64,000 nucleotides of DNA, taken from assembly GCA_031520405.1 (NCBI GenBank), contig GCA_031520405.1_4842.1. One strand, 5' to 3'. The notes beneath the pieces are model-generated. The model worked only from the letters and a program-made list of their open reading frames with translations, was not told where the DNA came from and did not search any database. Position numbers and translations under genes: made by a program. Positions 715 through 59,240 of the stretch are shown one piece after another (within the stretch, counting starts at the first letter, position 1; each line of letters opens with the position of its first letter). The stretch comes from a phage.

Positions 715-775
715 TTATCAATTCCTCAAAAGAATTAATGATTGACTAAATACCTTCAAAATTGAGGGTAAAGTC

Positions 776-1417
776 ATGGCTACTTCAAAATATTTCAACT
801 ATACAGCACATCAAGGTACTCAAAAATTAATTGATGACTTGGTGGTCGAGATGATACAATTGCGTGGGATTGACGTCAAGTATATCCCACGTTCTATTGT
901 TGAAAAATACCCAATTTTAAACGAGGCCGAACACAAATTCGACCAAGCGTTTGACATCGAAGTGTATATGCAGGATTATCAAGGCTTCAACACACAGATG
1001 TGGGAAAAGTTCGGCGGTATCCAATTACAAGATGAAGTGACCTTCACTATTGCTCGTCGTCGTTTTTCAGAAGTTATTGGTAATGGTCCAGGCCTTGAAC
1101 AAATGCCTCAAGAAGGTGATTTGATATATCTGCCTATGGCTAACAAAATATTTAAAGTGAATAACCCGAACAACGATGAAGAATTCATGCAATTTGGGAA
1201 ATGGTACACATATTCCCTACCATGTACGTTGTTCCAATACGGTAACGAAGATTTCGATACAGGTGTATCTGAAATAGACGATATCGATAAACGGTTGCAG
1301 GATCTGGAAGGAGACGGTGTGTACAAAGACGCCAGCCTGCAAACGGATAACCAATTTGCGGACGAAATAGAGAAAGATCTTTCGCCCAATAAAATGAAGA
1401 TAGACTTCGGGGAATAA
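776..1417 (+). CDS. neck protein gp14-like
   Basis: synteny (between gp13-like and gp15-like); GAGGG RBS; ACTAAATAC motif 23 nt upstream. Confidence 0.5.
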   Translation: MATSKYFNYTAHQGTQKLIDDLVVEMIQLRGIDVKYIPRSIVEKYPILNEAEHKFDQAFDIEVYMQDYQGFNTQMWEKFGGIQLQDEVTFTIARRRFSEVIGNGPGLEQMPQEGDLIYLPMANKIFKVNNPNNDEEFMQFGKWYTYSLPCTLFQYGNEDFDTGVSEIDDIDKRLQDLEGDGVYKDASLQTDNQFADEIEKDLSPNKMKIDFGE

Positions 1418-1419
1418 TC

Positions 1420-2118
1420 ATGGCCAGACCATTTGAAAAATATTTCTACCATGAATCGTTGTTGAAATATATCCATGTTTTCAACGCTATCATGTCGGAT
1501 TTAAAAGTCAAAACCGAACGTGGCTTGATGGAAATCCCGCTGCATATGGCCATTGGCCGCCGTAATGACCTCAACAGGAACGTGCCAGCCAATATGCTGC
1601 CATTTGCAACAATGTCCTTTGGTCAGTTCGAAATCAATAAACAGGTGACCAAGTCGTATCATAATCAGATATCGACTGCAACTGCGCGGTCCAAACAACG
1701 AATTCCGATCATTATAGATTTTGAATATAACATCAGAACGAAGAAACTGGTCGAAATGCTACAGGTGTTGGAACAAATTTATTCTGTGTTCACTCCTTCT
1801 GTTGACTGTCAGATAAAGGACAACGACACTTTATCTCAAGATCAGAACGTGAAGATAATGTTGGTAAATCACACGATTTCTGACAACTGGGAAGGAGACG
1901 CAACAGAATCACCACACATAGATTGTTCATTCAATTTTCAATTACATGGTCACATCTATGGAGAAGATTATTGGGTTGATGATGGTTCGGGCGGTGGGGA
2001 TCCAAACGTCATCAAAGAGATAATTATTGAAATGTCTAATGATTTGAACATGCCATGGTCGGAACTTCCTGAATGGTTCCGAGTTGATAAAGACGGCATA
2101 CATCATCCGGAGGATTGA
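1420..2118 (+). CDS. tail sheath stabilizer/tail completion protein gp15-like
   Basis: synteny and loose similarity to T4 gp15; start abuts gp14 stop. Confidence 0.55.
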   Translation: MARPFEKYFYHESLLKYIHVFNAIMSDLKVKTERGLMEIPLHMAIGRRNDLNRNVPANMLPFATMSFGQFEINKQVTKSYHNQISTATARSKQRIPIIIDFEYNIRTKKLVEMLQVLEQIYSVFTPSVDCQIKDNDTLSQDQNVKIMLVNHTISDNWEGDATESPHIDCSFNFQLHGHIYGEDYWVDDGSGGGDPNVIKEIIIEMSNDLNMPWSELPEWFRVDKDGIHHPED

Positions 2119-2120
2119 TC

Positions 2121-2801
2121 ATGAGCAATATGTCAGAAAGGTTACTCGCCACACTTGATGCGGTGACTGCCCGAGACGAAGTTGGGAAGGAGGCAATGGA
2201 GGCTGTCGCCCCTCGTCCAGGTATTGACTTCGATGAAAATACAGGTGAATGGTTTGGTGAACGTCCGGAAGGGTATCAGCCGATTCCTGAACCGCCTTCA
2301 TTGGAGGATATTGCTTCCAAGGAATCCAAAGTACCTGAGTTTGCGGACACTGATGCTACAACGGATTACAAACGGATACGCGACACAACATATGCCATGC
2401 AAGAAGCCACAATGTTCATGATGGGACAAGCCGCTAAATTGGCTGCATCCACAGAAGCTCCGCGAGCATTTTCTGTTTTCCGTGAATTGGGTGAACTCAT
2501 GCGAGGTCTGAATAAAGACTTGATGGAAAACCAGAAAACCATCAAGGCGGTAACAGGTGATAAAGAACCACCTGTTGATGACACGACAGTGGATGTTACA
2601 ACTTCACCAGACGGAACAACAACAGTATCGGTTGGGAAAAAGGCGCGATCTTCTCGCGATTTATTGAAGACGATCGAAGATGCACGCCGCCGCGCTGAAG
2701 AAAGAGCACAAGCAAAGGCCGCACAACAACCAGAAGATGAAATCATTGATGGTGAAACAGTTGATGTGAAGGAAGAAGACGATGGCGTATCAGAAGCGTG
2801 A
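2121..2801 (+). CDS. terminase small subunit (gp16-like)
   Basis: ATG 2121 preceded by GGAGG (track start 2115 is TTG); central region resembles T4 gp16; overlaps start of large terminase. Confidence 0.6.
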   Translation: MSNMSERLLATLDAVTARDEVGKEAMEAVAPRPGIDFDENTGEWFGERPEGYQPIPEPPSLEDIASKESKVPEFADTDATTDYKRIRDTTYAMQEATMFMMGQAAKLAASTEAPRAFSVFRELGELMRGLNKDLMENQKTIKAVTGDKEPPVDDTTVDVTTSPDGTTTVSVGKKARSSRDLLKTIEDARRRAEERAQAKAAQQPEDEIIDGETVDVKEEDDGVSEA

Positions 2802-4992
2802 TATAGAATATGCCCCAATTAAAACGGGGTTCAAAATAGACGATGTGAAATTGCGTATGGACCAAACGTTCATGCGCAAACCTTCTGTGCGTGCTCCTCG
2901 AGTCGAGTTAATGCTGACAGATGAACAAGAAGACGAATTCGTTGAATGTTCTATGGATGCACACTACTTCGCCGCCAACTATTACAAGATAACCACGATC
3001 GATAAGGGCTTTATCCTTTTCGATATGCATGATTATCAGAAGCAGTTGTTCCACGACTTTCAGGACTATCGATTTAATGCGGTCGTCCAGGCTCGTCAGT
3101 CCGGAAAATGTGTAAAAGGCGACACGCTTGTCACAGTTTACGATACTCTCAGCCAAGAGGAGTTGCTCCTGACTATAGGGGAGCTTCACAGCCGCTTCGA
3201 GGACGTCAACCACGCTGTGCCGCTGAATACCATTGGCAACCATGACAAGTTCGTGGACAGCCGCTTCGGCAAACGTTACTTTGTACAATCCGATAGTGGC
3301 TGGGTTCCGGTTATCGCAGCGCATAAGACGAAGAAATATGCGGAATTCGTTATTGTCACCGTTACCGGAAGGCGAATTAACGTGGCTGATGAACATATGT
3401 TCTTCACTCCGGACATGAAGGAGATATTTGCCAAAGACCTGAATGCTGGGTCATACATCATGACGACAGAAGGTCCAGAAGAAATCCGTGAGATTTGGCA
3501 GACTGGTGAATATCACCATATGTACGATCTTCAGGTCAAATCTAGTGATCAACGTTATTACACGAATGGCTTTCTCAGTCATAACACGACCGTGGTGGCG
3601 GCGTTTCTTCTTTGGTATGCGATGTTCCATTCTGATAAGGAAATCGCAGTACTGGCAAACAAAGAGAAACAAGCGATAGAAATTCTTGACCGTATCAGAA
3701 AAGCATACCAAGACCTTCCATTCTTCCTTCAGCAGGGTTGTGAGAAGTTTGGTTCTACCCTGATAGAGTTTGAGAATGGTTCTAAGATATACGCTTATGC
3801 CACGTCTTCGGACTCCATCCGTGGTCGTTCTGTATCGCTCTTGTACGTTGACGAAGTCGCGTTTATCGAAAACGACTTTGAATTTTGGGAATCAACTTTC
3901 CCAGCCATTGCATCTGCCGATACATCACGCTGTATTTTGACAAGTACTCCGAAAGGCCAGCGAGGGTTGTTCTATGATATTGTCACCAAAGCAGATCCGC
4001 GCCATCCACAATACAACGACTTCCACCTAACTGAAGTCCCATGGTATAAGGTTCCGGCATATACCAAAGATCCAGATTGGGAAACCAAACAACGTGCCCG
4101 TCTGGGGGATGCTCGTTTCGATCAAGAATTTGGCATTAAGTTCCGTGGTTCCGTGGGTTCATTGATTCCGGCCAAATGCTTAGATAAAATGACGTCCAAG
4201 TTGTATCGGGAACCTAATGAATTCACCAAGATTTATAAGGAATACGACCCACAACGTCTCTACTTTGGGATTGCGGACACTGGGAAGGGGGTGGAAGGAG
4301 ATTATTCCGTCTTAACAATTCTGGATATAACTGAATATCCGCATGTCATAGCAGCCAAGTACAGGAATAATACGATACCTCCTATGATGTATGCATACAC
4401 GATAGCTGATATGTGCACCGAATACGGGGAATGTCCTGTCCTTGTTGAAACAAACAACGACGTCGGCGGTCAGGTTATTACAATTCTTTATCAAGAGATA
4501 GAATATCCAGAAATCATATTCACATCAACAGATAACAAAGGGACGGGGAAACGGATTGGTGGACGTAAACCGGAACCTGGTATCAATACCAACAGAAAAG
4601 TCCGATCTATCGGTTGTGCTAACCTGAAAGCGCTCATTGAGAAAGAAATGTTGGTGATAGAAGACCAGGACACGATAGATGAACTCAGTACATTTGTGTT
4701 CAAAGGCGCTCGGTATGAAGCCGATGACGGTTGTCACGATGACTGTGTCATGCCGTTGGTCTTATATTCATGGGCAGTAAAACAAGAATGGTTCAGTGAT
4801 TTGACATCTACAAGTATTTCTCAGGACATGAGAAACCGAATGTCTTCAACTGAATCTCAGCAGGTATTCCCATTTGGTGGTTTAGTCGTTGGAGACACCC
4901 CATCCGAAACTGAGCATTTGCCTGGTTTCGGGGGTATTCAAGTTTTCAACGAAATGTCAGGGATGACCATGGATGAGTGGGTTAAGAATTGA
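2782..4992 (+). CDS. terminase large subunit (gp17-like), intein-containing
   Basis: strong similarity to T4 gp17 around TTVVAAFL...YVDEVAF...TSTP; Walker A RQSGK|T interrupted by 159-aa insertion. Confidence 0.9.
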   Translation: MAYQKRDIEYAPIKTGFKIDDVKLRMDQTFMRKPSVRAPRVELMLTDEQEDEFVECSMDAHYFAANYYKITTIDKGFILFDMHDYQKQLFHDFQDYRFNAVVQARQSGKCVKGDTLVTVYDTLSQEELLLTIGELHSRFEDVNHAVPLNTIGNHDKFVDSRFGKRYFVQSDSGWVPVIAAHKTKKYAEFVIVTVTGRRINVADEHMFFTPDMKEIFAKDLNAGSYIMTTEGPEEIREIWQTGEYHHMYDLQVKSSDQRYYTNGFLSHNTTVVAAFLLWYAMFHSDKEIAVLANKEKQAIEILDRIRKAYQDLPFFLQQGCEKFGSTLIEFENGSKIYAYATSSDSIRGRSVSLLYVDEVAFIENDFEFWESTFPAIASADTSRCILTSTPKGQRGLFYDIVTKADPRHPQYNDFHLTEVPWYKVPAYTKDPDWETKQRARLGDARFDQEFGIKFRGSVGSLIPAKCLDKMTSKLYREPNEFTKIYKEYDPQRLYFGIADTGKGVEGDYSVLTILDITEYPHVIAAKYRNNTIPPMMYAYTIADMCTEYGECPVLVETNNDVGGQVITILYQEIEYPEIIFTSTDNKGTGKRIGGRKPEPGINTNRKVRSIGCANLKALIEKEMLVIEDQDTIDELSTFVFKGARYEADDGCHDDCVMPLVLYSWAVKQEWFSDLTSTSISQDMRNRMSSTESQQVFPFGGLVVGDTPSETEHLPGFGGIQVFNEMSGMTMDEWVKN
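3109..3585 (+). mobile_element. mini-intein (Hint domain only, no homing endonuclease domain) in terminase P-loop
   Basis: insert begins Cys (CVKGDTLV), ends His-Asn (FLSHN) followed by Thr +1; excision restores RQSGKT Walker A matching T4 SRQLGKT. Confidence 0.75.
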
Positions 4993-4993
4993 T

Positions 4994-5002
4994 CACTAAA
5001 TA
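4994..5002 (+). promoter_or_regulatory. putative late-promoter-like motif CACTAAATA upstream of tail sheath gene
   Basis: ACTAAATA-type box ~43 nt upstream of ATG 5045; same motif recurs upstream of other late genes. Confidence 0.3.
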
Positions 5003-5044
5003 TCTTTCAAATTGAGCGAAACTCTACCGAGAAGGAATGATATT

Positions 5045-6940
5045 ATGGCAACTCAAAGCTTCAGCGTTGCGCCGTCCGTTCAGTGGACTGAGCGTGATGC
5101 CACGCTTCAGACGTCCCCGTCCGTTGTTGTTCAGGGCGCGACCGTCGGCAAATTTCAATGGGGTGAAGTTGAACTTCCAGTGCTGGTGACTGGTGGTGAG
5201 ACAGGTTTGGTGAAGAAATTCTTCAAACCCAACGACAGTACTGCGACCGATTTTCTTGTAATCGCGGACTTTTTGTCTTACAGCTCTATGGCATGGGTGA
5301 CCCGTGTTGTTGGTCCTCTGGCCAAGAACTCTGTTACCAAAGGTCAGACAGCGATTGCGATCAAAAACAAACTGGATTTTGAAACAGCAAGTCCTTCGGC
5401 GTCCATCACTTGGACTGGTCGTTATCCAGGTTCCCTGGGTAATGATATTGCTATCAATGTTTGTGATGCTGCTGGATTCTCAACTTGGGAATTCCGTAAT
5501 AACTTTGCATACGCACCTCAGTCTGGTGAATTCCATGTAGTTGTCGTAGACAAAGTTGGTCGCATTACCGACTCTGCTGGCGCGGTCGGTCAGGTTGACC
5601 GTATCTCCGTTTCTGGTACGGCTACTGCTGCTGGCACCATCAGTGTGGCAGGTGAAGATATCGCATATCTGGATACTGATACTCCAGCCGATTTGGCAAC
5701 CAAAATCGGTACAGCACTAACTTCCCTGACAAGTGTTTATTCTTCTGTTGTCGTGAAGTCCAACACTGTCATCGTGACCCATAAAGCTATTGGTCCCCAG
5801 ACAGTTACTGCTATTGTTCCAGATGATAAGGGGCTGACTGCAACCGCCGTGATTACCACTGTTGGCGCATCTGGTTCTATTATCGAAAAATACGAACTCA
5901 TGCAGAACACACAGGGTTCCAAAAAGTCCGATGGCGCGAATGCGTACTTCAAAGATGTCATCAATGATACATCAAATTGGGTGTACACCTTCGCTACCGC
6001 TCTGGCCGCAGGTGTTGTTGAATTAGAAGGCGGCGTAGACGATTATAACATCAACCGCGTGGCAGCTATCCAAGTCTTGAACAATGCTGAAGCATATGAT
6101 GCGAAGCCAGTATTTGCGTACTGTGAAGAACTGATTGAGCAACAAGCATTGATCGACTTATCTACTGAGCGAAAAGATACGGTATCTTTCGTATCCCCGC
6201 TCCGTGATACGGTTGTTGGCAACCGTGGTCGTGAAATGGATGATGTCGTTGCTTGGCGTGAAAGCCTTGTTCGCGACTCTTCTTATTTCTTCATGGATGA
6301 TAACTGGGCATATGTGTACGACAAGTACAACGACAAAATGCGTTGGATTCCGGCTTGTGGTGGCACCGCAGGTGTTTGGGCGCGAAGCATTGAAATCGCG
6401 GGTATCTACAAATCTCCGGCGTTCCACAACCGTGGTAAATACAACAACTATAATCGAATGGCGTGGTCTGCTTCTTCTGATGAACGTGCTGTGTTGTACC
6501 GCAATCAGATCAACAGCATCGTAACCTTCTCCAATGAAGGCATCGTCCTGTATGGTGACAAAACTGGCCTGACCCGCCCGTCGGCGTTTGACCGCATCAA
6601 CGTTCGTGGTCTGTTCATCATGGCTGAGCAGAACATCGCCGCAATCGCCAAATACTATCTTGGTGAGAACAATGACGCGTTTACACGTGGTCTGTTCAGC
6701 AATGCGGTTCGTCCATATATTCGCCAGCTGGCAAATATGGGCGCGATTTACGATGGTAAAGTCAAATGTGATGAAGACAACAACACTGCTGATATCATTG
6801 CGGCAAACCAAATGGTTGCTGGTATCTGGTTGAAGCCTGAGTACAGCATAAATTGGGTGTATCTTGACTTTGCTGCAGTTCGACCAGATATGGAGTTCAG
6901 CGAAATCGAATCCGGTGGCGGCATCGTTGCTGCTTCATAA
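5045..6940 (+). CDS. tail sheath protein (gp18-like)
   Basis: GKFQWG and C-terminal GDKTG...FDRINVR similarity to T4 gp18; ATG 5045 with GAAGGAA RBS (track start 5012 is TTG). Confidence 0.9.
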   Translation: MATQSFSVAPSVQWTERDATLQTSPSVVVQGATVGKFQWGEVELPVLVTGGETGLVKKFFKPNDSTATDFLVIADFLSYSSMAWVTRVVGPLAKNSVTKGQTAIAIKNKLDFETASPSASITWTGRYPGSLGNDIAINVCDAAGFSTWEFRNNFAYAPQSGEFHVVVVDKVGRITDSAGAVGQVDRISVSGTATAAGTISVAGEDIAYLDTDTPADLATKIGTALTSLTSVYSSVVVKSNTVIVTHKAIGPQTVTAIVPDDKGLTATAVITTVGASGSIIEKYELMQNTQGSKKSDGANAYFKDVINDTSNWVYTFATALAAGVVELEGGVDDYNINRVAAIQVLNNAEAYDAKPVFAYCEELIEQQALIDLSTERKDTVSFVSPLRDTVVGNRGREMDDVVAWRESLVRDSSYFFMDDNWAYVYDKYNDKMRWIPACGGTAGVWARSIEIAGIYKSPAFHNRGKYNNYNRMAWSASSDERAVLYRNQINSIVTFSNEGIVLYGDKTGLTRPSAFDRINVRGLFIMAEQNIAAIAKYYLGENNDAFTRGLFSNAVRPYIRQLANMGAIYDGKVKCDEDNNTADIIAANQMVAGIWLKPEYSINWVYLDFAAVRPDMEFSEIESGGGIVAAS

Positions 6941-6946
6941 ATGACC

Positions 6947-6973
6947 AACCCCGCTTCGGCGGGGTTTTCCTTT
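6947..6973 (+). terminator. rho-independent terminator
   Basis: AACCCCGC-TTCG-GCGGGGTT hairpin followed by T-run. Confidence 0.7.
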
Positions 6974-6996
6974 GTCTTATTGATTTGAGTTATTGA

Positions 6997-7455
6997 ATGA
7001 TATACGCATACAAAATTGAAACGATAACTAATGGAAAGGTCTACATCGGTGTGACCAATGACCCACAACGAAGATATGATCAGCATTTTGCGAATGCTTT
7101 TCATCATGGAGTCCAAAGTGAATTGTATGATGCCATGCGTAAGTATGGAACATCTGGATTTACTTTCGTTGTAATTGCTCAGACCGATGAAGTCCATAAA
7201 TGGGAATTAGAGAAGCAACTCATCTCTCAATATAATTCTTATGAGATGGGTTACAACATGAATAAAGGCGGTAATGATGGAAGTCATATGCTGGGTAAAA
7301 CTGCAGCAAAATTGACATCCACAGGTGAACACATTGGTCTTGTTTCTCTCATAGATCCCCGTTGGGAATTGTGTGAAATCGAACCCGTTTTAAGCAATGT
7401 TGACCACGGATTTGATTTTTCTTCCATGAAGATTAAAAGATTGACGACTAATTAG
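6997..7455 (+). CDS. GIY-YIG endonuclease (putative free-standing homing endonuclease)
   Basis: N-terminal IYAYKIE...GKVYIGVT...RRYDQH, later Glu and Asn: GIY-YIG catalytic core; inserted between gp18 and gp19 after terminator. Confidence 0.65.
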   Translation: MIYAYKIETITNGKVYIGVTNDPQRRYDQHFANAFHHGVQSELYDAMRKYGTSGFTFVVIAQTDEVHKWELEKQLISQYNSYEMGYNMNKGGNDGSHMLGKTAAKLTSTGEHIGLVSLIDPRWELCEIEPVLSNVDHGFDFSSMKIKRLTTN

Positions 7456-7485
7456 AATTGTGTACTCTTATTTGGAGATATAAAA

Positions 7486-8019
7486 ATGGCGACAGTCAAT
7501 GAGTTTCGCGCAGCCATGTCACGAGGGGGCGGCGTACAACGCCAACACCGCTGGCGTGTGACTGTAAACTTTCCTTCTTTTGTTGCTGGTTCCGACACAA
7601 TTCGTGACGTGTCCTTGCTGGCTGTAACCACCAACACCCCAACAGGTCAGCTGGGCGAAATTCTGGTGCCCTGGGGTGGTCGTGAACTTCCGTTCCCAGG
7701 GGATCGTCGTTTCGAAGCGCTTCCTGTGACGTTCATTAACGTGGTGAACAACGCTCCATACAATGCTTTTGAAGTGTGGCAGCAATTCATCAACGGTAGT
7801 GAAAACAACCGCGCCAGCGCGAATCCAGATGATTATTTCCGTGATATCATCATGGAACTTCTGGACGCGAATGACAACGTGACTAAGACATGGACTTTAC
7901 AGGGCGGCTGGCCTCAAAACCTCGGCCAACTGGAACTCGATATGTCGGCAATGGACTCTTACACACAGTTCACTGTCGACTTGCGTTATTTCCAAGCCGT
8001 TTCTGACAAGTCATTGTAA
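7486..8019 (+). CDS. tail tube protein (gp19-like)
   Basis: C-terminal GGWPQNLGQLELD...FTVDLRYFQ resembles T4 gp19 GLWPTNVGELQLDW...EVTLALDYWE; GGAG RBS. Confidence 0.8.
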   Translation: MATVNEFRAAMSRGGGVQRQHRWRVTVNFPSFVAGSDTIRDVSLLAVTTNTPTGQLGEILVPWGGRELPFPGDRRFEALPVTFINVVNNAPYNAFEVWQQFINGSENNRASANPDDYFRDIIMELLDANDNVTKTWTLQGGWPQNLGQLELDMSAMDSYTQFTVDLRYFQAVSDKSL

Positions 8020-8086
8020 TGTCCTCGGTGCTGGGGGAATGTTATTCCCCCTCACTAATTACAAGAAAACGTTGAGGACTTAGATC

Positions 8087-9769
8087 ATGGCTGGATACGG
8101 CAGAGGGTTCTTCGGTTTGTTTGGTGGTGGCGGTTTAGTCAATGCCAAAGTCGACACCGATAAGTTAGCCCAAAAACAAGATGAATTGTTGCTCACCAAG
8201 GCGACAGTTGTTGCTCTGGACGATGCTCAAGACGGTTCTATAATCCTTCAGGGCGGTGCAAACACCTACAACTATGTTGGCGTTGAGAGTGAACTTCTCA
8301 GCGTTAAAACAGTTGTGGAAGAATATCAGTCCATGGCCCAGCAGCCAGAAATACGCAAAGCTGTGGACATCATTGTTAATGACGTTGTCACATGTGAGGA
8401 AGACGAAACTCCGGTGACAGTCAATCTTGACAAAGTTGATGGTATTTCTGAATCAGTCAAAGAATCTATCACCGAATGTTTCAAAGAAGTGATTCATTTG
8501 ATGGATTTTGAAAATACGGCGTATCAAAAGATTCGGAAATGGTATGTAGATGGTCGACAAGCGTATCATGTGATTGTTGACCCAACGAATAAGAAGGGCG
8601 GGATCAAGAAATTGGTCATGCTGGATTCTCGTTGTATTCGTCCTGTGTACATCGTTGAAAAGGCAATGCGTGAAGGTGGTATAGAAGCGATCGAATCTGT
8701 AACGCTGAAATACTATTACAATCCGAATTATAATCGAAACCAATTCACTGGTCAATCAGGTACTTCTCAAAACTTCCAACCTTCACAACAAGAACTCGTG
8801 TTTGATGACGAAAGTATCGTTTATATCGATAGTGGTGAAGAACCATTGGCTAACGGTATTGTCCCAGGGCTTTTAAATCCTGCAATCCGCCCGTTGAACA
8901 ACTTGGTTACGACTGAAGACGCAACAGTAATTTATGCCATCACTCGCGCCCCTGAGAAACGCGCATTCTATCTTGACGTCGGTACTCTCGGCAAGAAATC
9001 TGCTGAAGAATACATGACCATGATGATGGGTAAATTCAAAAACCGCAACGCATATGACCGCACCACTGGTAAGATAACAGGTAATGCCCATCTTATGGGT
9101 ATTGCAGAGGATTATTGGTTGCCGCGCCGCGAAGGTCAGAATGCTACAGAGATTGCGACTGTTGGGGGTGGGAATCAATTGGGCGAAATGGATCACGTGA
9201 ACTATTTCCGTGAAAAACTCTATGATGCTCTAATGATCCCTAAGAGCCGCCTCCAAGAGGAAGGATCTATTAACATTGGGGGTTCCAACCTCGCGGAGAT
9301 TACACAGGAAGAGCTGCGTTTCAGCAAGTTCTGTGCTGGGTTACGTCGTCGTTACTCCCATTTCTTTATGGAGTTTTTACGTCGCCAATTAATTTTGAAA
9401 GGCGTGACTGACGAAAAAGATTGGAATGAAAAAATCAAGCCGTTTATTAAGTTTGAATTCACTTCTGATAGCTATATTCGTGAGCAACAAGAAAACGCCA
9501 TATTAAATGATCGCCTGGCTTCTCTGAACACTGTTGAGCCTTTTGTTGGTTCTATATTCTCCATAGACTACGTCATGAGAAATGTATTGCGTATGTCTGA
9601 TGAAGAAGTTAAAGAACAACAAACGAAGATCGCGGAAGAGAAGAAGAAAGGTCTCTATCCGAAGGTTCAAGCAGATGAAACTGGCAATTATAGCGGTTCA
9701 GATGTTAGTCCGTTGAAGTTTAAACCTGAGACTATCCCATTCTCCGGTTCAACAGACGATAGTATTTAA
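8087..9769 (+). CDS. portal vertex protein (gp20-like)
   Basis: similarity to T4 gp20 (ITRAPE...YLD, EDYWLPRREG, NYFR); GAGGA RBS. Confidence 0.9.
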   Translation: MAGYGRGFFGLFGGGGLVNAKVDTDKLAQKQDELLLTKATVVALDDAQDGSIILQGGANTYNYVGVESELLSVKTVVEEYQSMAQQPEIRKAVDIIVNDVVTCEEDETPVTVNLDKVDGISESVKESITECFKEVIHLMDFENTAYQKIRKWYVDGRQAYHVIVDPTNKKGGIKKLVMLDSRCIRPVYIVEKAMREGGIEAIESVTLKYYYNPNYNRNQFTGQSGTSQNFQPSQQELVFDDESIVYIDSGEEPLANGIVPGLLNPAIRPLNNLVTTEDATVIYAITRAPEKRAFYLDVGTLGKKSAEEYMTMMMGKFKNRNAYDRTTGKITGNAHLMGIAEDYWLPRREGQNATEIATVGGGNQLGEMDHVNYFREKLYDALMIPKSRLQEEGSINIGGSNLAEITQEELRFSKFCAGLRRRYSHFFMEFLRRQLILKGVTDEKDWNEKIKPFIKFEFTSDSYIREQQENAILNDRLASLNTVEPFVGSIFSIDYVMRNVLRMSDEEVKEQQTKIAEEKKKGLYPKVQADETGNYSGSDVSPLKFKPETIPFSGSTDDSI

Positions 9770-9810
9770 AGTTCAACTAAATATAGAAAATTAATTCGGA
9801 GATCAAAATC

Positions 9811-9981
9811 ATGAGCGCAATTGATATCGTTCGTGCAGTAATTGACGGTGACACTGAAACTGCTGTTGCAGAATGCAACATGGAACTTGATGCACGTAGT
9901 CAAGAACTATTAAACCAAGGCACAGCATATGTTCTGGATTCTATCGCAGCTGATATGAATTCAAACAACAACGGCCAGTAA
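9811..9981 (+). CDS. small protein (56 aa), possible prohead core protein
   Basis: not in ORF track (<60 aa); ATG with GGAG RBS; position between portal and protease as gp67/68 in T4; AACTAAATAT motif upstream. Confidence 0.4.
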   Translation: MSAIDIVRAVIDGDTETAVAECNMELDARSQELLNQGTAYVLDSIAADMNSNNNGQ

Positions 9982-9989
9982 GGAGATGC

Positions 9990-10307
9990 ATGATGGAAAT
10001 CACAGAGATCGCCACGTTCGCTGATTTCCTGGCCTCTCGTATGGACGAGCAGCGAGTCATCGATAAAGTGAACGCTCGTGGTAAACGCCGCCGCCGTCTG
10101 AAATGTGCCCCTGGGTTCAAATTGTCGGCTGATGGTTCACGTTGTGAAGTCATGGATGCCAGCGAACGTCGTGTTCGCAAGATCGGCAACCGCAAAGCCC
10201 TCCGCTCTAAAAAGCGTATGGGAATGGGCTATCAACGTAAAATCGAGCGCCGCAAGAAAAAGGCTATGAAGTTCCGCAAAATGATGGGACTGAGTAAGAA
10301 CAAGTAA
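9990..10307 (+). CDS. highly basic small protein, possible prohead core/internal protein
   Basis: Arg/Lys-rich 105 aa; GGAG RBS; location between portal and prohead protease. Confidence 0.5.
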   Translation: MMEITEIATFADFLASRMDEQRVIDKVNARGKRRRRLKCAPGFKLSADGSRCEVMDASERRVRKIGNRKALRSKKRMGMGYQRKIERRKKKAMKFRKMMGLSKNK

Positions 10308-10314
10308 GGAGTTT

Positions 10315-10983
10315 ATGATGAAACTGTTGCGTGAGATCACAGCGATAGGGAAGGATCTTCTAATCGGTGAGGCCACAACCTCAACTGGTGGGAAGGCCAT
10401 GTTCATCGAAGGTCCGTTTGTGATGTGTAACCAAGTCAACCGTAACGGGCGTAACTATGATCTGCAGAAAGTGGGTATTCCTGCTGTCGAAGCATACGAC
10501 AAAGAGTATATCCAAGATCGTCGCGCAATCGGTGAAGTCACACATCCTGACTATCCTTTCCCTAATCTGGTGGAAGCAGCGCTCAAAACCGAATCCCTTC
10601 GCTGGGAAGGCACTAATGCCATCGGTCGGGCGCGAATTTTAAATACACCAAAAGGCCAAATCATACGTGCATTGGCTGAAGCAGACTTCAATCTGGCCGT
10701 GTCTACACGTGGCCTGGGTGAGACCAAGTCAGTAAACGGTTATGATGACGTTCAGCCTGGCTTTATGCTCACCGCTGTTGATGCAGTCGACCGTCCTTCT
10801 GGACAAGTTTGTTATGTTAAGGCTGTGAGTGAATCTGTTGAATGGCAGCTTGATGAGGCTTCGGGTATTTGGATGCCTCGTGATGTTAAAGGGAAAGTTG
10901 TAGACCAGTTGGTGAAAACCAATATCCAGGTTGAAGACGATTTCCTGCGCCGCCTTGATGCAGCATTGAATCATCTGGGCTGA
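10315..10983 (+). CDS. prohead core protease (gp21-like)
   Basis: similarity to T4 gp21 (GEVTHP, LAVSTRGLGE). Confidence 0.85.
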   Translation: MMKLLREITAIGKDLLIGEATTSTGGKAMFIEGPFVMCNQVNRNGRNYDLQKVGIPAVEAYDKEYIQDRRAIGEVTHPDYPFPNLVEAALKTESLRWEGTNAIGRARILNTPKGQIIRALAEADFNLAVSTRGLGETKSVNGYDDVQPGFMLTAVDAVDRPSGQVCYVKAVSESVEWQLDEASGIWMPRDVKGKVVDQLVKTNIQVEDDFLRRLDAALNHLG

Positions 10984-10992
10984 AATTCAGCT

Positions 10993-11002
10993 CACTAAAT
11001 AC
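10993..11002 (+). promoter_or_regulatory. putative late-promoter-like motif CACTAAATAC upstream of scaffold gene
   Basis: motif ~28 nt upstream of ATG 11030. Confidence 0.3.
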
Positions 11003-11029
11003 TGAAAAATCGTTCAGAAGGAAACTATC

Positions 11030-11869
11030 ATGAAACCTGAATTGCAAAAACTGTTTGAAGGCGTTAATGGCCTCAGCACCGATTTCTTGGACAAAGTATC
11101 TGGTCTGCTGGAATCTAAAGTTGAAGCCGCCCGTCTGCAAGCTATTCAAGAAACTGAAGCGGCTGGTAACGTTGAGCGCCTGACTCTGGTAGAAGCCCAC
11201 CAGAAAGAAGTCGCAGACCTTAAAGAAAATTTCACTCTTCAGTTGGCGGAAAAAGTTGATTCGTTCCTCAACGCGGTGGTTGAAGAATGGGCTAACAAAA
11301 ATGCTCCGGCTATTGACGCTCAGATCAAAACCGAAGCTGCTGAACGCTTCCTCACTGGTTTCTCTAATGTTCTGAAAGAAGCAGGTGTTAGTTTCGCCAC
11401 TGACCCAGACGGTCAGATTGCAGCTCTCACCAACCGCCTGGCTGAAGCAGAGCAACGCGCCAGCATTGCCAATACTGAATTGGCCCAGCTCAAAGAAAGT
11501 GAAACCAAACGCCAGCGCAATGATGTCATTGATCGTATTTGTGAAGGTATGGTTGACACCAAGAAAGACACTGTTGTCAACCTGCTGGAAGGTATTGAAT
11601 TCCAGACCGAGTCTGAATTTGAATCCCGTGTGCGCACCTTCCGTAACCTGGTAGAAGGCAAAGATGACTTCTCTGATAAAGTCGGCAAAGACAATGAAAA
11701 AGGCAAGCCGGATGGCGACAAGTCTGAAAAAGACATCAAAGAAGGTAAAAAACCGAAGAAAGAAGGTGAAGCCGACGATGATGACGATGACGATGATGAC
11801 AAAGACGAAGTTGGCAAAGAAGTCAACGAAGCCGTCCGTCGCCAGATCAGTGCTTTGCTGAACGGCTAA
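11030..11869 (+). CDS. prohead core scaffolding protein (gp22-like)
   Basis: coiled-coil acidic protein with poly-Asp tract, between protease and major capsid as in T4. Confidence 0.75.
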   Translation: MKPELQKLFEGVNGLSTDFLDKVSGLLESKVEAARLQAIQETEAAGNVERLTLVEAHQKEVADLKENFTLQLAEKVDSFLNAVVEEWANKNAPAIDAQIKTEAAERFLTGFSNVLKEAGVSFATDPDGQIAALTNRLAEAEQRASIANTELAQLKESETKRQRNDVIDRICEGMVDTKKDTVVNLLEGIEFQTESEFESRVRTFRNLVEGKDDFSDKVGKDNEKGKPDGDKSEKDIKEGKKPKKEGEADDDDDDDDDKDEVGKEVNEAVRRQISALLNG

Positions 11870-11960
11870 TTTTAGCAGCCACAGCCCTCGAAAGGGGGCT
11901 TGATTTTGAACTACTAAGTAATTTCAACTTAACTGAATATCAATGTAAGGAACGAGCATC

Positions 11961-15564: not shown

Positions 15565-15583
15565 ATTTAAAATTTATTCAATA

Positions 15584-15618
15584 AACGGGGTTTACTTCTT
15601 CAATAAACCCCGTATACT
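15584..15618 (+). promoter_or_regulatory. early-promoter cassette: hairpin overlapping -35 GTTTAC, 17-nt spacer, -10 TATACT
   Basis: ACGGGGTTTA...TAAACCCCGT hairpin; GTTTAC(15590-15595)-N17-TATACT(15613-15618); conserved leader to ATG 15667. Confidence 0.45.
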
Positions 15619-17765: not shown

Positions 17766-18386
17766 TCAATGTCTAGCGGGGAGAACTCCCACTGGTTCGA
17801 TACCTTCCATCACCAGGGAGTTCACCCCAACATCACTCATTCGAATCCATACTTTACCGCCTGGTCTTATTTCATAGATGTTCATTTCATTACCCACAGC
17901 AGATCCATTAACGAAAACACCCTGAGTGGCAATTCGGATCGGAGATTTGGTGTTATTAACTATCTGAAATGATATTGCAACGTCTCTGGTGATTTCTACG
18001 TCCCTTGCTTGAGTATTCCTTCTGAGTTTGTCAAAGAAAGAAGGGTTGAAAGTCGCTATGATGCTATTATTCTGAGAGTAATAAATACTTGCGGATAGAT
18101 ATGGGATCTTTCCTTCGTCACCTTTCCTCAATAGGGGAATCGTGGTTTTCCAGTATGGTCTCAGTGACTGGTTGTTATCATCAAAACAACCAACAGCTTG
18201 AAGAGTCTGGAAGTTCTGAAAATCAGATACTACTTGATTCAGAATATTTTTATTGCATTTATCAATGTCGGCTGAGATGTTAACAGGTATGGTTCTGATT
18301 TCAGGATCCCAGAGGTCGGTTACAGAAATGACGGACGTGACAAAGATACGGCAACTTGTGAGTGCAAGCACCATTATCATCGTCAT
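17766..18386 (-). CDS. putative lipoprotein (reverse strand)
   Basis: N-terminus MTMIMVLALTSC with lipobox LTSC; long uninterrupted reverse ORF where forward frames are fragmented; stop abuts stop of convergent 17037..17765. Confidence 0.45.
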   Translation of the reverse strand: MTMIMVLALTSCRIFVTSVISVTDLWDPEIRTIPVNISADIDKCNKNILNQVVSDFQNFQTLQAVGCFDDNNQSLRPYWKTTIPLLRKGDEGKIPYLSASIYYSQNNSIIATFNPSFFDKLRRNTQARDVEITRDVAISFQIVNNTKSPIRIATQGVFVNGSAVGNEMNIYEIRPGGKVWIRMSDVGVNSLVMEGIEPVGVLPARH

Positions 18387-36780: not shown

Positions 36781-36859
36781 ATACGATAGTTTATTGAAAC
36801 CCTTTACTCAACATGGTGACAGCCCTATCATTTTATCCAATGAAATAAGGAGAATCACC

Positions 36860-37549
36860 ATGAAACGTTTAATCATCGGGGTTGTGCTGGCTGGTCTGGC
36901 ACTTCCTGCCACCGCCAAGCTGAATCCCACAGGTGAAAAACTGTGGTCTGATCTTTCCTACTGTGCTGGGTTCTCCCAAGCCGTCGCTATAGACAAAACT
37001 GGTTCCATAGAGAACTTTGCTGAACTCTGGGCCACAGGTAATGTCACAGATGCCGTTGTAAACGCTGGTATTGAGTTTAATCGATATAAGCAAGGCGCGT
37101 TCAACCTGAAAGGATATATGAACGACAAAGAATTTAACCGAGGAGGTATGGAGGCTGGCGATCTCATCATGACTGGTCGTATGGGCACACAAGGACGAAT
37201 GACCGTAAGACAGTGCCGTTCTCTTCCTTCTCCAGCATTACAAAAAGGTGTGCAGGTTGGCCGACGTCAGCTGGATCTCATCAATGATGGCAACCAATGC
37301 ATCAAGGTGTTTGAATATAGTGCCGACCAAGAATCAGATCGACGTTTGAAAAAGGAATGGCGGACTCGCGCCCTTGGCCTGAGAGCATGGCTAGTGGAAA
37401 ATGATCATTATTATGAAGACCGTGTTCAGAATGGTTTGAAAGATCTTTCCACTAATTTGTCTGTCAATCTAGACGACCCAAGGCTTTCGCGTGAACTCAA
37501 GCAAACAAGAATTGACTGTGATAATATGATGAAGGAGAACGAAAGATGA
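36860..37549 (+). CDS. secreted protein (signal peptide)
   Basis: MKRLIIGVVLAGLALPATA|K signal peptide with AxA cleavage site; AAGGAG RBS. Confidence 0.5.
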   Translation: MKRLIIGVVLAGLALPATAKLNPTGEKLWSDLSYCAGFSQAVAIDKTGSIENFAELWATGNVTDAVVNAGIEFNRYKQGAFNLKGYMNDKEFNRGGMEAGDLIMTGRMGTQGRMTVRQCRSLPSPALQKGVQVGRRQLDLINDGNQCIKVFEYSADQESDRRLKKEWRTRALGLRAWLVENDHYYEDRVQNGLKDLSTNLSVNLDDPRLSRELKQTRIDCDNMMKENER

Positions 37550-37866
37550 AAATCAAAATCTTATTGTTATTCCTGTACGCTTTCATGTCTTCCCAAGTAT
37601 TGGCAGCTCCGGCCAGTAAGTTGAATATTTGTGCTGCTTGGTTGTCTACATATCAACAATTTCATCCGGATGATAAGGACACATCAATCCTTTTATCTGA
37701 TTATGAAGGTGAATTGAAACGCCTTGATCTCTATAGTGTGGACCAGATAGAGAATGCGCTTGATTTACCCATGATGGAATCTGCTGCAGACAACAGCAAA
37801 CAGACTATTAAAGATTTGACTATGTGCCGTGAAATTGCAACTAATTTCGTTGGAAATCAAAGATAG
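37546..37866 (+). CDS. small secreted protein (signal peptide)
   Basis: MKIKILLLFLYAFMSSQVLA|AP signal peptide; ATGA overlap with upstream gene. Confidence 0.5.
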   Translation: MKIKILLLFLYAFMSSQVLAAPASKLNICAAWLSTYQQFHPDDKDTSILLSDYEGELKRLDLYSVDQIENALDLPMMESAADNSKQTIKDLTMCREIATNFVGNQR

Positions 37867-39433: not shown

Positions 39434-39721
39434 ATGTCCGGCGTATGGTGTGATGTATTGTTGGTAAGATTTTCAAACGGGATGGATAACCAGATTATTT
39501 CATTCTTTTATCCTGTTCCCTTTTCTTCTATGGGTCTGACTGTCAAGCGCGTTCTTGATATAGAAGAAAAACTCAACGCCATGCCGTATATGGCGCGACC
39601 ACATGTTCTGGGTTGTGAACTGTTAAACGAAATGATGATTGACGAGAACCTTGTTGAAACAATTATCACGCGTGAACAGATGAAAACCATACTGTCTCAG
39701 GGAGAACCCCATGTCGAATAA
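39434..39721 (+). CDS. hypothetical protein
   Basis: ATG with GGAGG RBS. Confidence 0.45.
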   Translation: MSGVWCDVLLVRFSNGMDNQIISFFYPVPFSSMGLTVKRVLDIEEKLNAMPYMARPHVLGCELLNEMMIDENLVETIITREQMKTILSQGEPHVE

Positions 39722-40031
39722 ACCGTTTGAACTTAAATTTCGCGTTTGGCATATTCCCCAGGTTCCTGGGATCGCTTTTCATGTTGAGGTTCCAACATTT
39801 GAAGAAGCGCAACGTCTGAAGAATACTCTGGCCGATTACGACCTGTTTCAGTATAACAATAACATCAAGCCGGATTATTGTAATGCTTCCGGCGTTCAAA
39901 TATACCAACATGATCTGACTGAAGAAGATCTAAATGATATGGGACTGGATGATCGTTGGGTTGATATCGAAGATATTGACGAACTCAACGATTATTTTGA
40001 TCATCTGCGTAGCACAGGGTGGGAAATATGA
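39711..40031 (+). CDS. hypothetical protein
   Basis: ORF with GGGAGAA RBS, overlapping neighbours. Confidence 0.45.
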   Translation: MSNKPFELKFRVWHIPQVPGIAFHVEVPTFEEAQRLKNTLADYDLFQYNNNIKPDYCNASGVQIYQHDLTEEDLNDMGLDDRWVDIEDIDELNDYFDHLRSTGWEI

Positions 40032-40237
40032 TCGGGTTAATCCGTTATCTGTTCATATTCGTAATAACAACATTCATTTTATTTTTCTTTTTCAAATACT
40101 TGAAAGAGACTAAAATCTACCGGAGTAAACGTTGGCGCAAACGGGTGAGAGTAACTTTCCTACTGCTGATTTCTTCGGTTACAATAACTGCACTCACGTT
40201 GGGTGCTTATATTTACATTTTTGAAGGAGTACATTGA
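40028..40237 (+). CDS. small membrane protein with two predicted TM helices
   Basis: two long hydrophobic stretches separated by RSKRWRKRVR basic loop; overlaps start of downstream lipoprotein gene. Confidence 0.45.
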   Translation: MIGLIRYLFIFVITTFILFFFFKYLKETKIYRSKRWRKRVRVTFLLLISSVTITALTLGAYIYIFEGVH

Positions 40238-41028
40238 TGTTCAAGAAACTGGTATTTGGCGCAATTATGGTCCTAGCAACAAGCCTTCTTTCAGGCTGCG
40301 GCGGTGTTATCGATGAAGGAAACGTCGGTGTTCGAACCCAATGGGGTGAAGTGGACATGAACCCTGTAACCGCAGGTATCTACACCAGTTTCGTTTCAAG
40401 TGTAGATGTCTATACGACTAAAGAAGCCGTCGTGAGTCTGACGAAAATGACGCCAAAGGCCAAAGACAACCTGACCTTGGAAGATCTGGATGTGGACGTT
40501 TATTACACACCGAACGTCGCGAAGGTTCCTTGGTTCCATACCAAATTTGCAGGTCAGAGCGCTGAACTCGGTGACGGCACGATAGCGGTGGGATTCAACC
40601 TGGTTAAAACCGCCGCAGCATCCTCAACGATGGACGCCGTTTCCTCTTTGGATTCTATGACAATTCACACCCAACGGGCTGAGTTAGAAAAGATGATCAA
40701 GGAACGCACCCAGCAGCAATTAGAAACAGCTGCGCCTGGCATGTTCACAATCACACGCGTGTTGGTCAAAAAGGCGCTGACAGATCCTTCGATTGAGCAA
40801 TCTATCCGTGATAATGTCATGGCCGACAAACGTTTGGATACAGCAAGAAAGAACGTTGAAATTCGCGACCAAGAAGCCAAGGCGAATCAGAAACTGACGA
40901 CATCTCTGACACCTGAATATTTACAACACGAATATAACATGGTGTTGCAATCTTGCGCCAACAGCGGGAAATGTACTCTGATTGTTGATGGTTCAGGCTC
41001 AAGTAAAATGCTAAACGTCGGCAAATAA
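40237..41028 (+). CDS. SPFH/band-7 domain lipoprotein
   Basis: lipobox LLSGC after hydrophobic leader; VGVRTQWGEV and PKAKDNLTLEDLDVDVYY match the SPFH core; GAAGGAG RBS. Confidence 0.55.
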   Translation: MFKKLVFGAIMVLATSLLSGCGGVIDEGNVGVRTQWGEVDMNPVTAGIYTSFVSSVDVYTTKEAVVSLTKMTPKAKDNLTLEDLDVDVYYTPNVAKVPWFHTKFAGQSAELGDGTIAVGFNLVKTAAASSTMDAVSSLDSMTIHTQRAELEKMIKERTQQQLETAAPGMFTITRVLVKKALTDPSIEQSIRDNVMADKRLDTARKNVEIRDQEAKANQKLTTSLTPEYLQHEYNMVLQSCANSGKCTLIVDGSGSSKMLNVGK

Positions 41029-50317: not shown

Positions 50318-50351
50318 AAGGGCACTAAATATCACGTGCCCTTTATCTTTT
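50318..50351 (+). terminator. hairpin terminator-like element
   Basis: AGGGCAC...GTGCCCT stem with large loop, then T-rich run. Confidence 0.4.
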
Positions 50352-51665: not shown

Positions 51666-51678
51666 ATTATTCAATAAA

Positions 51679-51721
51679 AGGGGCGTTTGCCCCTTTACTT
51701 CTTCAATAATCCACGTATAAT
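51679..51721 (+). promoter_or_regulatory. early-promoter cassette: hairpin, -35 CTTTAC, 17-nt spacer, -10 TATAAT
   Basis: AGGGGC-GTTT-GCCCCT hairpin overlapping CTTTAC(51693-51698)-N17-TATAAT(51716-51721). Confidence 0.45.
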
Positions 51722-57498: not shown

Positions 57499-57536
57499 AA
57501 TACTTCAAAAATAATTTAAAAATTTATTGAAAAAGA

Positions 57537-57566
57537 CTTTACTCTTCAATAATCATGCACTATTAT
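57537..57566 (+). promoter_or_regulatory. early promoter: -35 CTTTAC, 18-nt spacer, -10 TATTAT
   Basis: same -35/-10 architecture as cassettes at 15590 and 51693. Confidence 0.4.
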
Positions 57567-58376: not shown

Positions 58377-58445
58377 TCAACACTAAATCCTCAAGTTCGA
58401 CTTTCACTTTAAATACCTTTGCATACATTGCGGAGGTATTTTCTT

Positions 58446-59240
58446 ATGGCCATTCTAAAACTTGGCAACCGAGGTTTTGAAGTCAAAGCACTTCAACAAA
58501 GCCTCAACAAAATCGGTTTCTCTATTACAGCCGATGGCATATTTGGTAAGGCAACAGAGAATGCTGTCAAATCCGTTCAGGCAGGTGCTGGATTGGTTAT
58601 TGATGGTATTGCTGGGCCAAAGACCTTCTATGCTATCCGCAACGCTGGAGACGCTCATCAGGAACATCTGACCGAAGCGGACTTGGTTGACGCAGCACGT
58701 GAACTTGGTGTTGAGCTGGCCAGTATGAAAGCTGTGAATCAGGTAGAATCCCGTGGCACGGGTTTTACCAAAACTGGCAAGATCAAAACTCTGTTTGAGC
58801 GCCACATCATGTACAAAAAGGTGACGGCCAAATTCGGGCAAGCAAGAGCCAATGCTCTGTACCAACTCTACCCAACATTGGTTAACCCCAATTCTGGCGG
58901 GTATATCGGCGGAGACGCGGAGTTGGAACGCCTTCAGGGTGCAATCGCCCTTGACGAGGACTGCGCTTACGAGAGTGCTTCCTACGGCCTATTCCAGATC
59001 ATGGGGTTCAACTGCCAAATCTGTGGCTATTCAAATGCCAAAGAGATGTTCACTGATTTCCTGACTGGTGAACGCGCTCATCTTCTGGCATTTGTCAAGT
59101 TCATCAAGGCTGATGCCAATATGTGGAAAGCCCTGAAGAACAAGAATTGGGCCGAGTTTGCTCGTCGGTACAATGGTCCGGCATATGCGAAAAACCAGTA
59201 TGATACTAAACTGGCGGCAGCATACAAGAGTTTCTGTTAA
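58446..59240 (+). CDS. endolysin: N-terminal peptidoglycan-binding domain plus C-terminal muramidase-like domain
   Basis: LQQSLNKIGF...DGIFGKATENAVKSVQ PG-binding repeat; C-terminal domain with conserved Glu (VNQVESRGTGF); GGAGG RBS. Confidence 0.7.
   Translation: MAILKLGNRGFEVKALQQSLNKIGFSITADGIFGKATENAVKSVQAGAGLVIDGIAGPKTFYAIRNAGDAHQEHLTEADLVDAARELGVELASMKAVNQVESRGTGFTKTGKIKTLFERHIMYKKVTAKFGQARANALYQLYPTLVNPNSGGYIGGDAELERLQGAIALDEDCAYESASYGLFQIMGFNCQICGYSNAKEMFTDFLTGERAHLLAFVKFIKADANMWKALKNKNWAEFARRYNGPAYAKNQYDTKLAAAYKSFC

Follow-up and report, generated by a model that had tools for sequence, protein, structure and literature searches.

Two overlapping genes in a 64,000-nucleotide stretch of phage DNA (GenBank assembly GCA_031520405.1, contig GCA_031520405.1_4842.1; this whole stretch is called the window below) encode proteins that both appear to be exported to the periplasm, and that are annotated in related genomes as the inner- and outer-membrane subunits (i-spanin and o-spanin) of a spanin. 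As read from the sequence, this annotation fails on its defining feature, the lipoprotein nature of the o-spanin, and probably also on the membrane anchor expected of the i-spanin. The explanation we prefer, with a probability of roughly 0.42, is that the genes form a conserved cassette specific to the family Ackermannviridae, whose products would act as a soluble periplasmic complex in envelope protection or exclusion, by analogy with the T4 protein Spackle. The main gain from this analysis is negative, in that a widespread label fails on one defining feature and probably on a second, and the positive gain, an orphan periplasmic pair, is modest. The analysis brings to light a pair that is restricted to one phage family, strongly conserved there and apparently of new fold, for which the tail lysozyme, a lysis factor and a component of the host envelope are candidate targets. 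Phages of the genus Kuttervirus and related Ackermannviridae are in wide use as biocontrol and therapeutic agents against Salmonella, E. coli O157, Klebsiella and Dickeya.

The upstream gene, g1 (36860-37549, + strand; ATG at 36860, TGA at 37547-37549), encodes 229 amino acids, and the downstream gene, g2 (37546-37866, + strand; ATG at 37546, TAG at 37864-37866), encodes 106, as defined by the open reading frames (ORFs) of the window. The end of g1 and the start of g2 share the four nucleotides ATGA, and together the genes exactly fill the interval that an earlier note on this DNA had described as holding two translationally coupled genes. That description is borne out by the overlap and by AAGGAG, a strong ribosome-binding site, in front of each gene; the second copy is encoded by the conserved last codons of g1 (MMKENER). 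All five divergent lineages retain the stop/start overlap, and the order of the genes, with g1 first and g2 second, is kept in all lineages. The features of the pair, including the predicted sites for signal peptidase I (SPase I) and the isoelectric point (pI) of mature g2, are as follows.

36847-36852, + strand: Shine-Dalgarno sequence AAGGAG of g1, 7 nucleotides 5′ of the g1 ATG

36860-36916, + strand: predicted signal peptide of g1, MKRLIIGVVLAGLALPATA (residues 1-19), with predicted SPase I cleavage after ATA and before KLN

36917-37234, + strand: N-domain of g1 (residues 20-125), with SYCAGF, GGxxxGD[IL]IMTG, Cys35 and Cys119

37235-37549, + strand: C-domain of g1 (residues 126-229) and stop codon; helical, with Cys147 and Cys220

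37532-37537, + strand: Shine-Dalgarno sequence AAGGAG of g2, within the 3′ end of g1 and 8 nucleotides 5′ of the g2 ATG

37546-37605, + strand: predicted signal peptide of g2, MKIKILLLFLYAFMSSQVLA (residues 1-20), with predicted SPase I cleavage after VLA and before APAS; without a lipobox

37606-37866, + strand: mature g2 (86 amino acids, pI 4.5, net charge -6) and stop codon; predicted five-helix bundle with Cys29 and Cys94

Salmonella phage moki (Kuttervirus, Ackermannviridae) is 99.5% identical in this region, to which 276 phage records have close matches; judged from the sequence, the source of the window is a Vi1-like Salmonella Kuttervirus. The mention of T4-like phages in the earlier note fits loosely, in that T4-type replication and morphogenesis genes are shared. 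In about 275-280 phage records both genes are conserved, and without exception they are neighbors; tblastn matches to g2 come from Ackermannviridae only. For g1, 10 clusters were recovered when 1.84 billion cluster representatives were searched exhaustively with a profile; we counted 30 close homologues and compared 34 orthologues, deep lineages included. For g2, a sequence search combined with a profile search using divergent mature domains, conducted in a collection of 5.8 billion proteins, yielded 48 clusters, 46 of them full length. All clusters of both families lie on Ackermannviridae-like contigs, and on this sequence evidence the families are confined to the Ackermannviridae. Neither protein has a match in Pfam, NCBIfam or PADLOC, and sequence profile searches of the PDB with g1 and g2 were empty.

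Export signals were called by a rule-based reading joined to comparative evidence. Both N-termini have a basic n-region, a hydrophobic core and small residues at positions -3 and -1, and by these rules g1, g2 and all their orthologues have the features of the Sec/SPase I class, with no further hydrophobic segment in the mature part. This agrees with the Sec-type signals that the earlier note had quoted for both products. In a screen by crude rules of all ATG-initiated ORFs of at least 60 amino acids on both strands of the window, SPase I-type signals were seen in g1 and g2 only; the screen also picked up one lipoprotein per strand and two small membrane proteins, the rest being non-genic ORFs. 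Therefore, the adjacency of the sole two genes of the window with such signals is not due to chance. Neither protein has a C-terminal hydrophobic segment, which excludes the topologies of a unimolecular spanin and of a type I membrane protein.

In g1, a core of 10-13 hydrophobic residues gives way to Pro or polar residues and then to a small-x-small motif in 34 of 34 orthologues. The predicted cleavage sites (a slash marks the cut) are LPAxA/K in the Kuttervirus group, STANA/G in phage 3M, TSAWS/E and HASA/A in metagenomic lineages and PVHA/R in phage Bue1. Conservation of positions -3 and -1 while the rest of the segment diverges is as expected from selection for cleavage, and the N-terminus of g1 is more likely to be a cleavable signal than a membrane anchor. 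These observations lean away from the anchor of an i-spanin, with the limit that rules of this kind do not completely distinguish signal peptides from signal anchors.

The N-terminal segment of g2 is hypervariable in both sequence and length, and a small-x-small motif (VLA, VHA, ALA, VNA, AQA, AMA, AFA, ASA and others) always stands just before the conserved mature start, AP.SKLN.C.AW..TYQQFH. A lipobox was defined as [LVI][ASTVI][GAS]C at the end of the hydrophobic core. The signal of g2 in the window contains no Cys, and thus has no lipobox of the type an o-spanin carries. Its first Cys is residue 29 (LNIC), nine residues past the SPase I site as the ninth residue of the mature protein, where it comes after a Lys, has Ile at -1 and lies outside the hydrophobic core.

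The same holds for most of the family, as evident by the absence of a lipobox from 40 of the 46 full-length g2 clusters. The remaining six carry the canonical I[AV]GC four residues before the same SPase I site and are all of the type found in phage Marshall; the nearest relative without a lipobox (P0005) has Ser in place of the lipobox Cys. The deep lineages, namely Serratia phages 3M and phiMAM1 (47-53% identity), Erwinia phage Bue1 (33%) and two metagenomic Ackermannviridae-like contigs (about 30%), all have plain SPase I signals. Because the lipobox is confined to the Marshall type and none is present in the deep lineages, its distribution marks it as a shallow, derived trait of one lineage. 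The occurrence of the same g2 domain with and without a lipobox also means that anchoring is optional for its function.

Cysteines are a second conserved feature of the pair. The two in the second protein to which the earlier note had drawn attention, C29 and C94, are invariant in every full-length homologue. The four in g1 (C35, C119, C147 and C220), which that note did not mention, are likewise all invariant, and the g1 pairs travel with their domains. The g1 orthologue of Serratia phage 3M (126 amino acids) consists of the N-domain only, and that of Erwinia phage Bue1 (165 amino acids) of the N-domain with a 45-residue N-terminal extension, and both of these short forms keep exactly the N-domain pair. 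Kuttervirus, Limestonevirus, Taipeivirus and two metagenomic lineages have the C-domain, and 3M and Bue1 lack it. This tracking of Cys pairs with domains suggests one disulfide in each g1 domain, and the invariant pair in g2 suggests one there as well.

Gly, Ala and Cys make up most of the invariant positions in the g1 N-domain, and no set of His, Asp or Glu is conserved there. This absence of catalytic-type residues favors a binder over an enzyme. We considered and rejected a cysteine peptidase of the NlpC/P60 type for this domain, which the motif SYCAGF might recall, since the Cys has no conserved His or acidic partner and pairs instead with the second invariant Cys; the domain encoded in the window contains no His at all. 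The charge of g1 is near neutral. In the AlphaFold2 (AF2) model of g1, the N-domain is unreliable, with a predicted local distance difference test (pLDDT) score below 50, and a helical hairpin at residues 142-196 (pLDDT 73-92) is the sole confident part.

The AF2 model of g2 is of far better quality, with a pLDDT of 86 overall and above 90 for the mature part. It is a compact bundle of helices at residues 25-39, 44-59, 65-71, 77-81 and 85-105, with Cys29 in the first helix and Cys94 in the last. Residues that are invariant across the deep lineages are C29, W32, Y36, H40, E54, K58, D73, A80, T87 and C94. When the model was compared with the whole PDB by Foldseek, nothing scored below E = 3, and comparison with BFVD gave a single significant match, the orthologue in Erwinia phage phiEa2809. 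Apparently, then, the g2 model represents a new fold with no recognizable relative of solved structure. We also rejected the idea that the N-terminal half of g1, its C-terminal half and g2 are three copies of one two-Cys domain, as hhalign gave probabilities of 0.03-2.2% with both shallow and enriched alignments; a global alignment does set the Cys pairs of the g1 C-domain and g2 together with a similar order of helices, at a level that is not significant.

Sequences upstream of g1 bear on when the pair is expressed, and two elements are found there.

36790-36798, + strand: upstream element TTATTGAAA, the reverse complement of TTCAATAA, directly 5′ of the -35 hexamer

36803-36831, + strand: putative sigma70-like promoter TTTACT-N17-TATCAT, 29 nucleotides upstream of the g1 ATG

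An alignment of the promoter region from Kuttervirus (the window and Maynard), Limestonevirus (PP35) and Taipeivirus (Menlow and KWBSE43-6) reveals an invariant -35 element and a -10 element that keeps A2 and T6 (TATCAT or TACTAT), separated by a spacer of constant length and diverging sequence. Such an arrangement is the classical footprint of a promoter. Five copies of the pattern TTTACT-N16-18-TATNAT are present in the window, every one on the + strand, compared with 0.10 expected, and none of 100 shuffled sequences reached five. The upstream element is invariant across the same three genera while the neighboring spacer varies. Its octamer occurs 19 times in the window compared with 4.5 expected, a count reached by none of 100 shuffles, and it may serve early or middle regulation in the Ackermannviridae. 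Examples lie at 15577-15606, 51670-51709, 57524-57552 and 36791-36798; several copies of the octamer adjoin sigma70-like promoters, and it recurs in the intergenic regions inspected.

A different motif, ACTAA[AGT]TA, is present in eight copies, all on the + strand, with seven in 745-11920, one at 50324-50331 and none between 12 and 50 kb. It is found upstream of the genes for neck, sheath, tube, portal, scaffold and major capsid proteins, and is a candidate for the late-promoter core that takes the place of the T4 consensus TATAAATA. The T4-type late promoter itself was rejected, as its one copy in the window is at chance level. No copy of ACTAA[AGT]TA is found near g1 and g2. From their own sigma70-like promoter and their location outside the block of late motifs, we infer that the two genes are expressed before, or independently of, late transcription, by host RNA polymerase in the early or middle period. 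Our search of the literature on Ackermannviridae transcriptomes and lysis genetics found nothing relevant.

A known protein whose description strikingly resembles that of g2 is T4 Spackle (gp61.3), the periplasmic inhibitor of the gp5 tail lysozyme. Spackle is an early, cleaved, acidic helical bundle of 75 amino acids with a disulfide (Cys29-Cys81), and its binding site on the lysozyme is a basic patch (PMC7677548). The two proteins share a signal of roughly 20 residues, a mature part of 75-86 amino acids that is all helical, and acidity (pI 4.5 and charge -6 for mature g2; pI 4.6 and charge -5 for Spackle). Both precursors have Cys29 near the N-terminus and one further Cys near the C-terminus, and both are associated with a host-type promoter or early expression. 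The signal of Spackle, MKKFIFATIFALASCAAQPAMA (retrieved T4 locus 2759-3052, minus strand), has a lipobox-like LASC seven residues before its reported cleavage site, much as the Marshall-type allele of g2 has a lipobox shortly before its SPase I site. Homology between g2 and Spackle was tried and rejected: hhalign gave the g2 alignment a probability of 4% against T4 Sp, with only the MK start aligned, and Spackle was neither returned by the PDB profile search nor present among the fold matches of g2. At most, the resemblance is an analogy of functional class.

A parallel for the optional lipobox is offered by families that have both lipoprotein and soluble periplasmic members, such as MliC/PliC; in g2, the same mature domain carries a lipobox in one shallow lineage and an ordinary signal elsewhere. 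The MliC/PliC proteins are lysozyme inhibitors with a beta-barrel structure, and the fold of g2 is unrelated to theirs.

According to the explanation we prefer, g1 and g2 would be exported by Sec, freed from the membrane by SPase I and stabilized by disulfides, such that neither product stays membrane-anchored in this phage and the pair is not a spanin. Overlap of the genes would give coupled amounts of the two proteins, and for this reason their most likely mode of action is a joint one, in a soluble complex in the periplasm. The small, acidic, disulfide-stapled and helical g2, with g1 as its partner, would serve as a non-enzymatic periplasmic binder or inhibitor that guards the envelope of the infected cell and acts before lysis. 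Its target could be the tail lysozyme of a superinfecting phage, which would provide exclusion and resistance to lysis from without, or alternatively a peptidoglycan- or lysis-related factor. The logic would be that of T4 Spackle, reached with an unrelated fold. Throughout, we infer cleavage, disulfides, complex formation, expression timing and the binding target. The role in lysis inhibition or superinfection exclusion raised in the earlier note is close to this proposal and would be plausible.

Several points weigh against this explanation. No experiment or homology ties g1 or g2 to any function, and the likeness to Spackle is an analogy that is matched neither by profile nor by fold. Spackle acts alone, whereas g2 always has its coupled partner g1, which the analogy leaves unexplained; in T4, the gene that overlaps sp (61.2) has no signal peptide. 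The minority Marshall/Maynard lineage has a good lipobox on g2. For g1, signal cleavage is a prediction: a 19-residue Kyte-Doolittle window averages about 1.7 at its N-terminus, a hydropathy that by itself cannot tell an anchor from a signal, and the accepted i-spanin of mEp237 has a similar-looking N-terminus, GLIGVVVIAVLSVALA/K. The AF2 model of g1 is poor (mean pLDDT 47.6, from a shallow alignment) and its fold is not readable. Finally, the argument on timing consists of promoter motifs, and in T4-type phages lysis genes are not always restricted to late units.

Of the alternatives, regulation of lysis timing survives best, although we regard it as unlikely. Here g1, g2 or both would bind the holin of the Ackermannviridae or another lysis factor, in the manner of the T4 antiholin sensor RI, which is exported, released into the periplasm and bound to the periplasmic domain of the holin. 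As small, exported, helical and Cys-bearing periplasmic proteins of a large virulent phage that also has rII genes, they resemble RI in gross features. The Ackermannviridae carry rIIA and rIIB, and no holin has been recognized in these phages according to the papers on them. The Gly/Ala-rich N-terminus of g1 could in principle act as a signal-anchor-release (SAR) segment, and a small protein with two transmembrane domains (TMDs) is encoded 2.2 kb downstream (40028-40237). However, the conserved -3/-1 motif argues against signal-anchor release and in favor of ordinary signal peptides. No homology to T4 Sp, RI or Imm was found by sequence or fold, nor was any match to another T4-type phage protein, and no cognate holin is known. 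We found no paper on lysis inhibition in these phages, for which no specific search was made.

It is rather more doubtful that g1 is an effector that acts on the host envelope (peptidoglycan, Lpp, Tol-Pal or Bam/Lol) with g2 as its inhibitor, chaperone or immunity-like partner. The arrangement of a larger gene followed by a small, helical, exported and coupled one, in an order kept in all lineages, can be compared with that of periplasmic toxin/immunity gene pairs. Moreover, the domain content of g1 varies while g2 is constant, and strong conservation in phages that infect different hosts points to a target that is itself conserved. The lack of catalytic-type residues in the g1 N-domain stands against this proposal, as SYCAGF is only superficially like NlpC/P60 and its Cys is likely to be in a disulfide. 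There is also no family or fold match that backs an enzymatic role.

We give a low probability to the spanin model itself, in which g1 would be an uncleaved i-spanin anchored in the inner membrane and g2 the o-spanin, and the two would form a bridge across the periplasm and, when the cell lyses, bring about fusion or disruption of the outer membrane. Like the two-component spanins of lambda (Rz/Rz1) and T4 (PseT.3/PseT.2), the latter of 'separated' architecture, the pair consists of adjacent, overlapping genes with N-terminal export signals and conserved periplasmic Cys. Such cysteines are common in spanins according to a survey by Kongari et al., 2018 (PMC6139136). In addition, g2 of Marshall and Maynard has the canonical lipobox LIAG/C, its family is labeled 'Rz-like spanin' in PHROGs, and there is otherwise no recognized spanin in the Ackermannviridae. 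Indeed, the lack of an identified means of outer-membrane disruption in this family, together with the Marshall-type lipobox, is the main reason to keep the spanin model at all.

The evidence on the other side begins with the signals described above, in particular the absent lipobox in this phage and most of its family and the short g1 core that ends in a conserved small-x-small motif in all orthologues. No coiled coil is predicted for the pair, and in its model g2 folds into a compact bundle and does not form a long tether. Coiled-coil or extended domains able to span the periplasm are typical of spanins and not universal among them. There is no homology to any validated spanin, the PHROG label being an annotation only, and the pair is unlinked to the endolysin (58419-59240, without a signal or SAR segment), which lies 21 kb downstream, or to a holin, none of which is seen nearby. 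Neither the window ORFs nor the signal screen revealed an o-spanin or lipoprotein ORF embedded in or overlapping g1. We did not find any literature report of lambda Rz/Rz1 complementation or of a deletion phenotype for g1 or g2.

The history of the label also weighs against the spanin model. In phage moki, g1 is moki_65, labeled 'i-spanin', and g2 is moki_66, labeled 'putative lipoprotein' in GenBank and 'Rz-like spanin' in RefSeq; among PHROGs, g1 belongs to phrog_4260 (unknown function) and g2 to phrog_3843. The survey gives Marshall a singleton i-spanin and a singleton o-spanin family (PMC6139136), and the Marshall sequences in its supplement are the orthologues of g1 and g2, with g2 starting MKCKILLLMVLIAG/CVNAAPPSKLN. 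That supplement records zero coiled-coil segments for the pair, lists it as the longest in the data set with the remark 'too long?', and states that it was accepted on a student submission, 'taking his word' (PMC6139136). The same survey lists Maynard, Vi01, SFP10, SJ2, SJ3, phiSboM-AG3, PhaxI, CBA120, ECML-4 and Dickeya RC-2014 as spanin-less (PMC6139136). When translated, g1 (215-901) and g2 (901-1227) of the retrieved Maynard locus are both identical to the Marshall proteins, yet the one phage is called spanin-less and the other spanin-bearing, and therefore the classification is inconsistent within the survey. In the later annotation of Klebsiella phage Menlow by the same center, g1 is a 'hypothetical protein' with no spanin-type label, and 'Rz-like spanin' for g2 was seen only in the RefSeq record examined.

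Comparison of these sequences and records indicates that the spanin label traces to one unverified annotation of Marshall. It was spread by RefSeq, PHROG and pVOG transfer and into comparative papers, such that hundreds of GenBank and RefSeq records now label the pair i-spanin and o-spanin. Lysis by the Ackermannviridae is poorly understood, with no known holin and with members listed as spanin-less in a specialist survey, and the correction removes a false answer as to how their outer membrane is breached. It is very improbable that g1 and g2 are the missing envelope-disruption or lysis-control module of these phages, an anchor-free periplasmic two-protein system with a new fold; if true, this would place next to spanins and disruptin-type peptides a third way in which the outer membrane or cell wall is controlled at lysis.

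The genes around the pair are all on the + strand. On the 5′ side are genes for a vWA protein, an acyl carrier protein, denV and a ParB-like protein of 149 amino acids, and on the 3′ side of g2 are three unknowns, a P22 gp17-like protein (PF17420), the two-TMD protein of 69 amino acids, an SPFH lipoprotein, HU and a helicase. Flanking the ~300-nucleotide acyl carrier protein homologue are two copies of a 71-nucleotide direct repeat (34684-34754 and 35040-35110; 93% identical, with the hairpin loop inverted between copies), each of which has a terminator-like hairpin followed by a sigma70-like promoter, TTTACT-N17-TATTAT. These repeats resemble the promoter-early stem-loop (PeSL) cassettes by which mobile gene units of T4-type phages are delimited.

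The P22 gp17-like gene (39711-40031) encodes 106 amino acids that match PF17420 with E = 1e-49; the protein has no export signal and is labeled 'superinfection exclusion protein'. P22 gp17 counters a prophage exclusion system and does not cause exclusion. The next ORF, 40028-40237, encodes the protein of 69-72 amino acids with two transmembrane segments, which could be a holin candidate, and overlaps the gene for the SPFH/Band_7 lipoprotein (40237-41028), which has the lipobox LLSG/C. As an inner-membrane protein paired with a lipoprotein, these two are formally nearer to the spanin signature than g1 and g2, but are more likely to resemble a membrane-scaffold pair of the NfeD-like/SPFH kind. 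A further putative lipoprotein is encoded by an ORF of ~205 amino acids at 17766-18386 on the minus strand, which has the N-terminal lipobox LALTS/C, corresponds to moki gp040 ('putative lipoprotein') and is among the few genes of the window on that strand.

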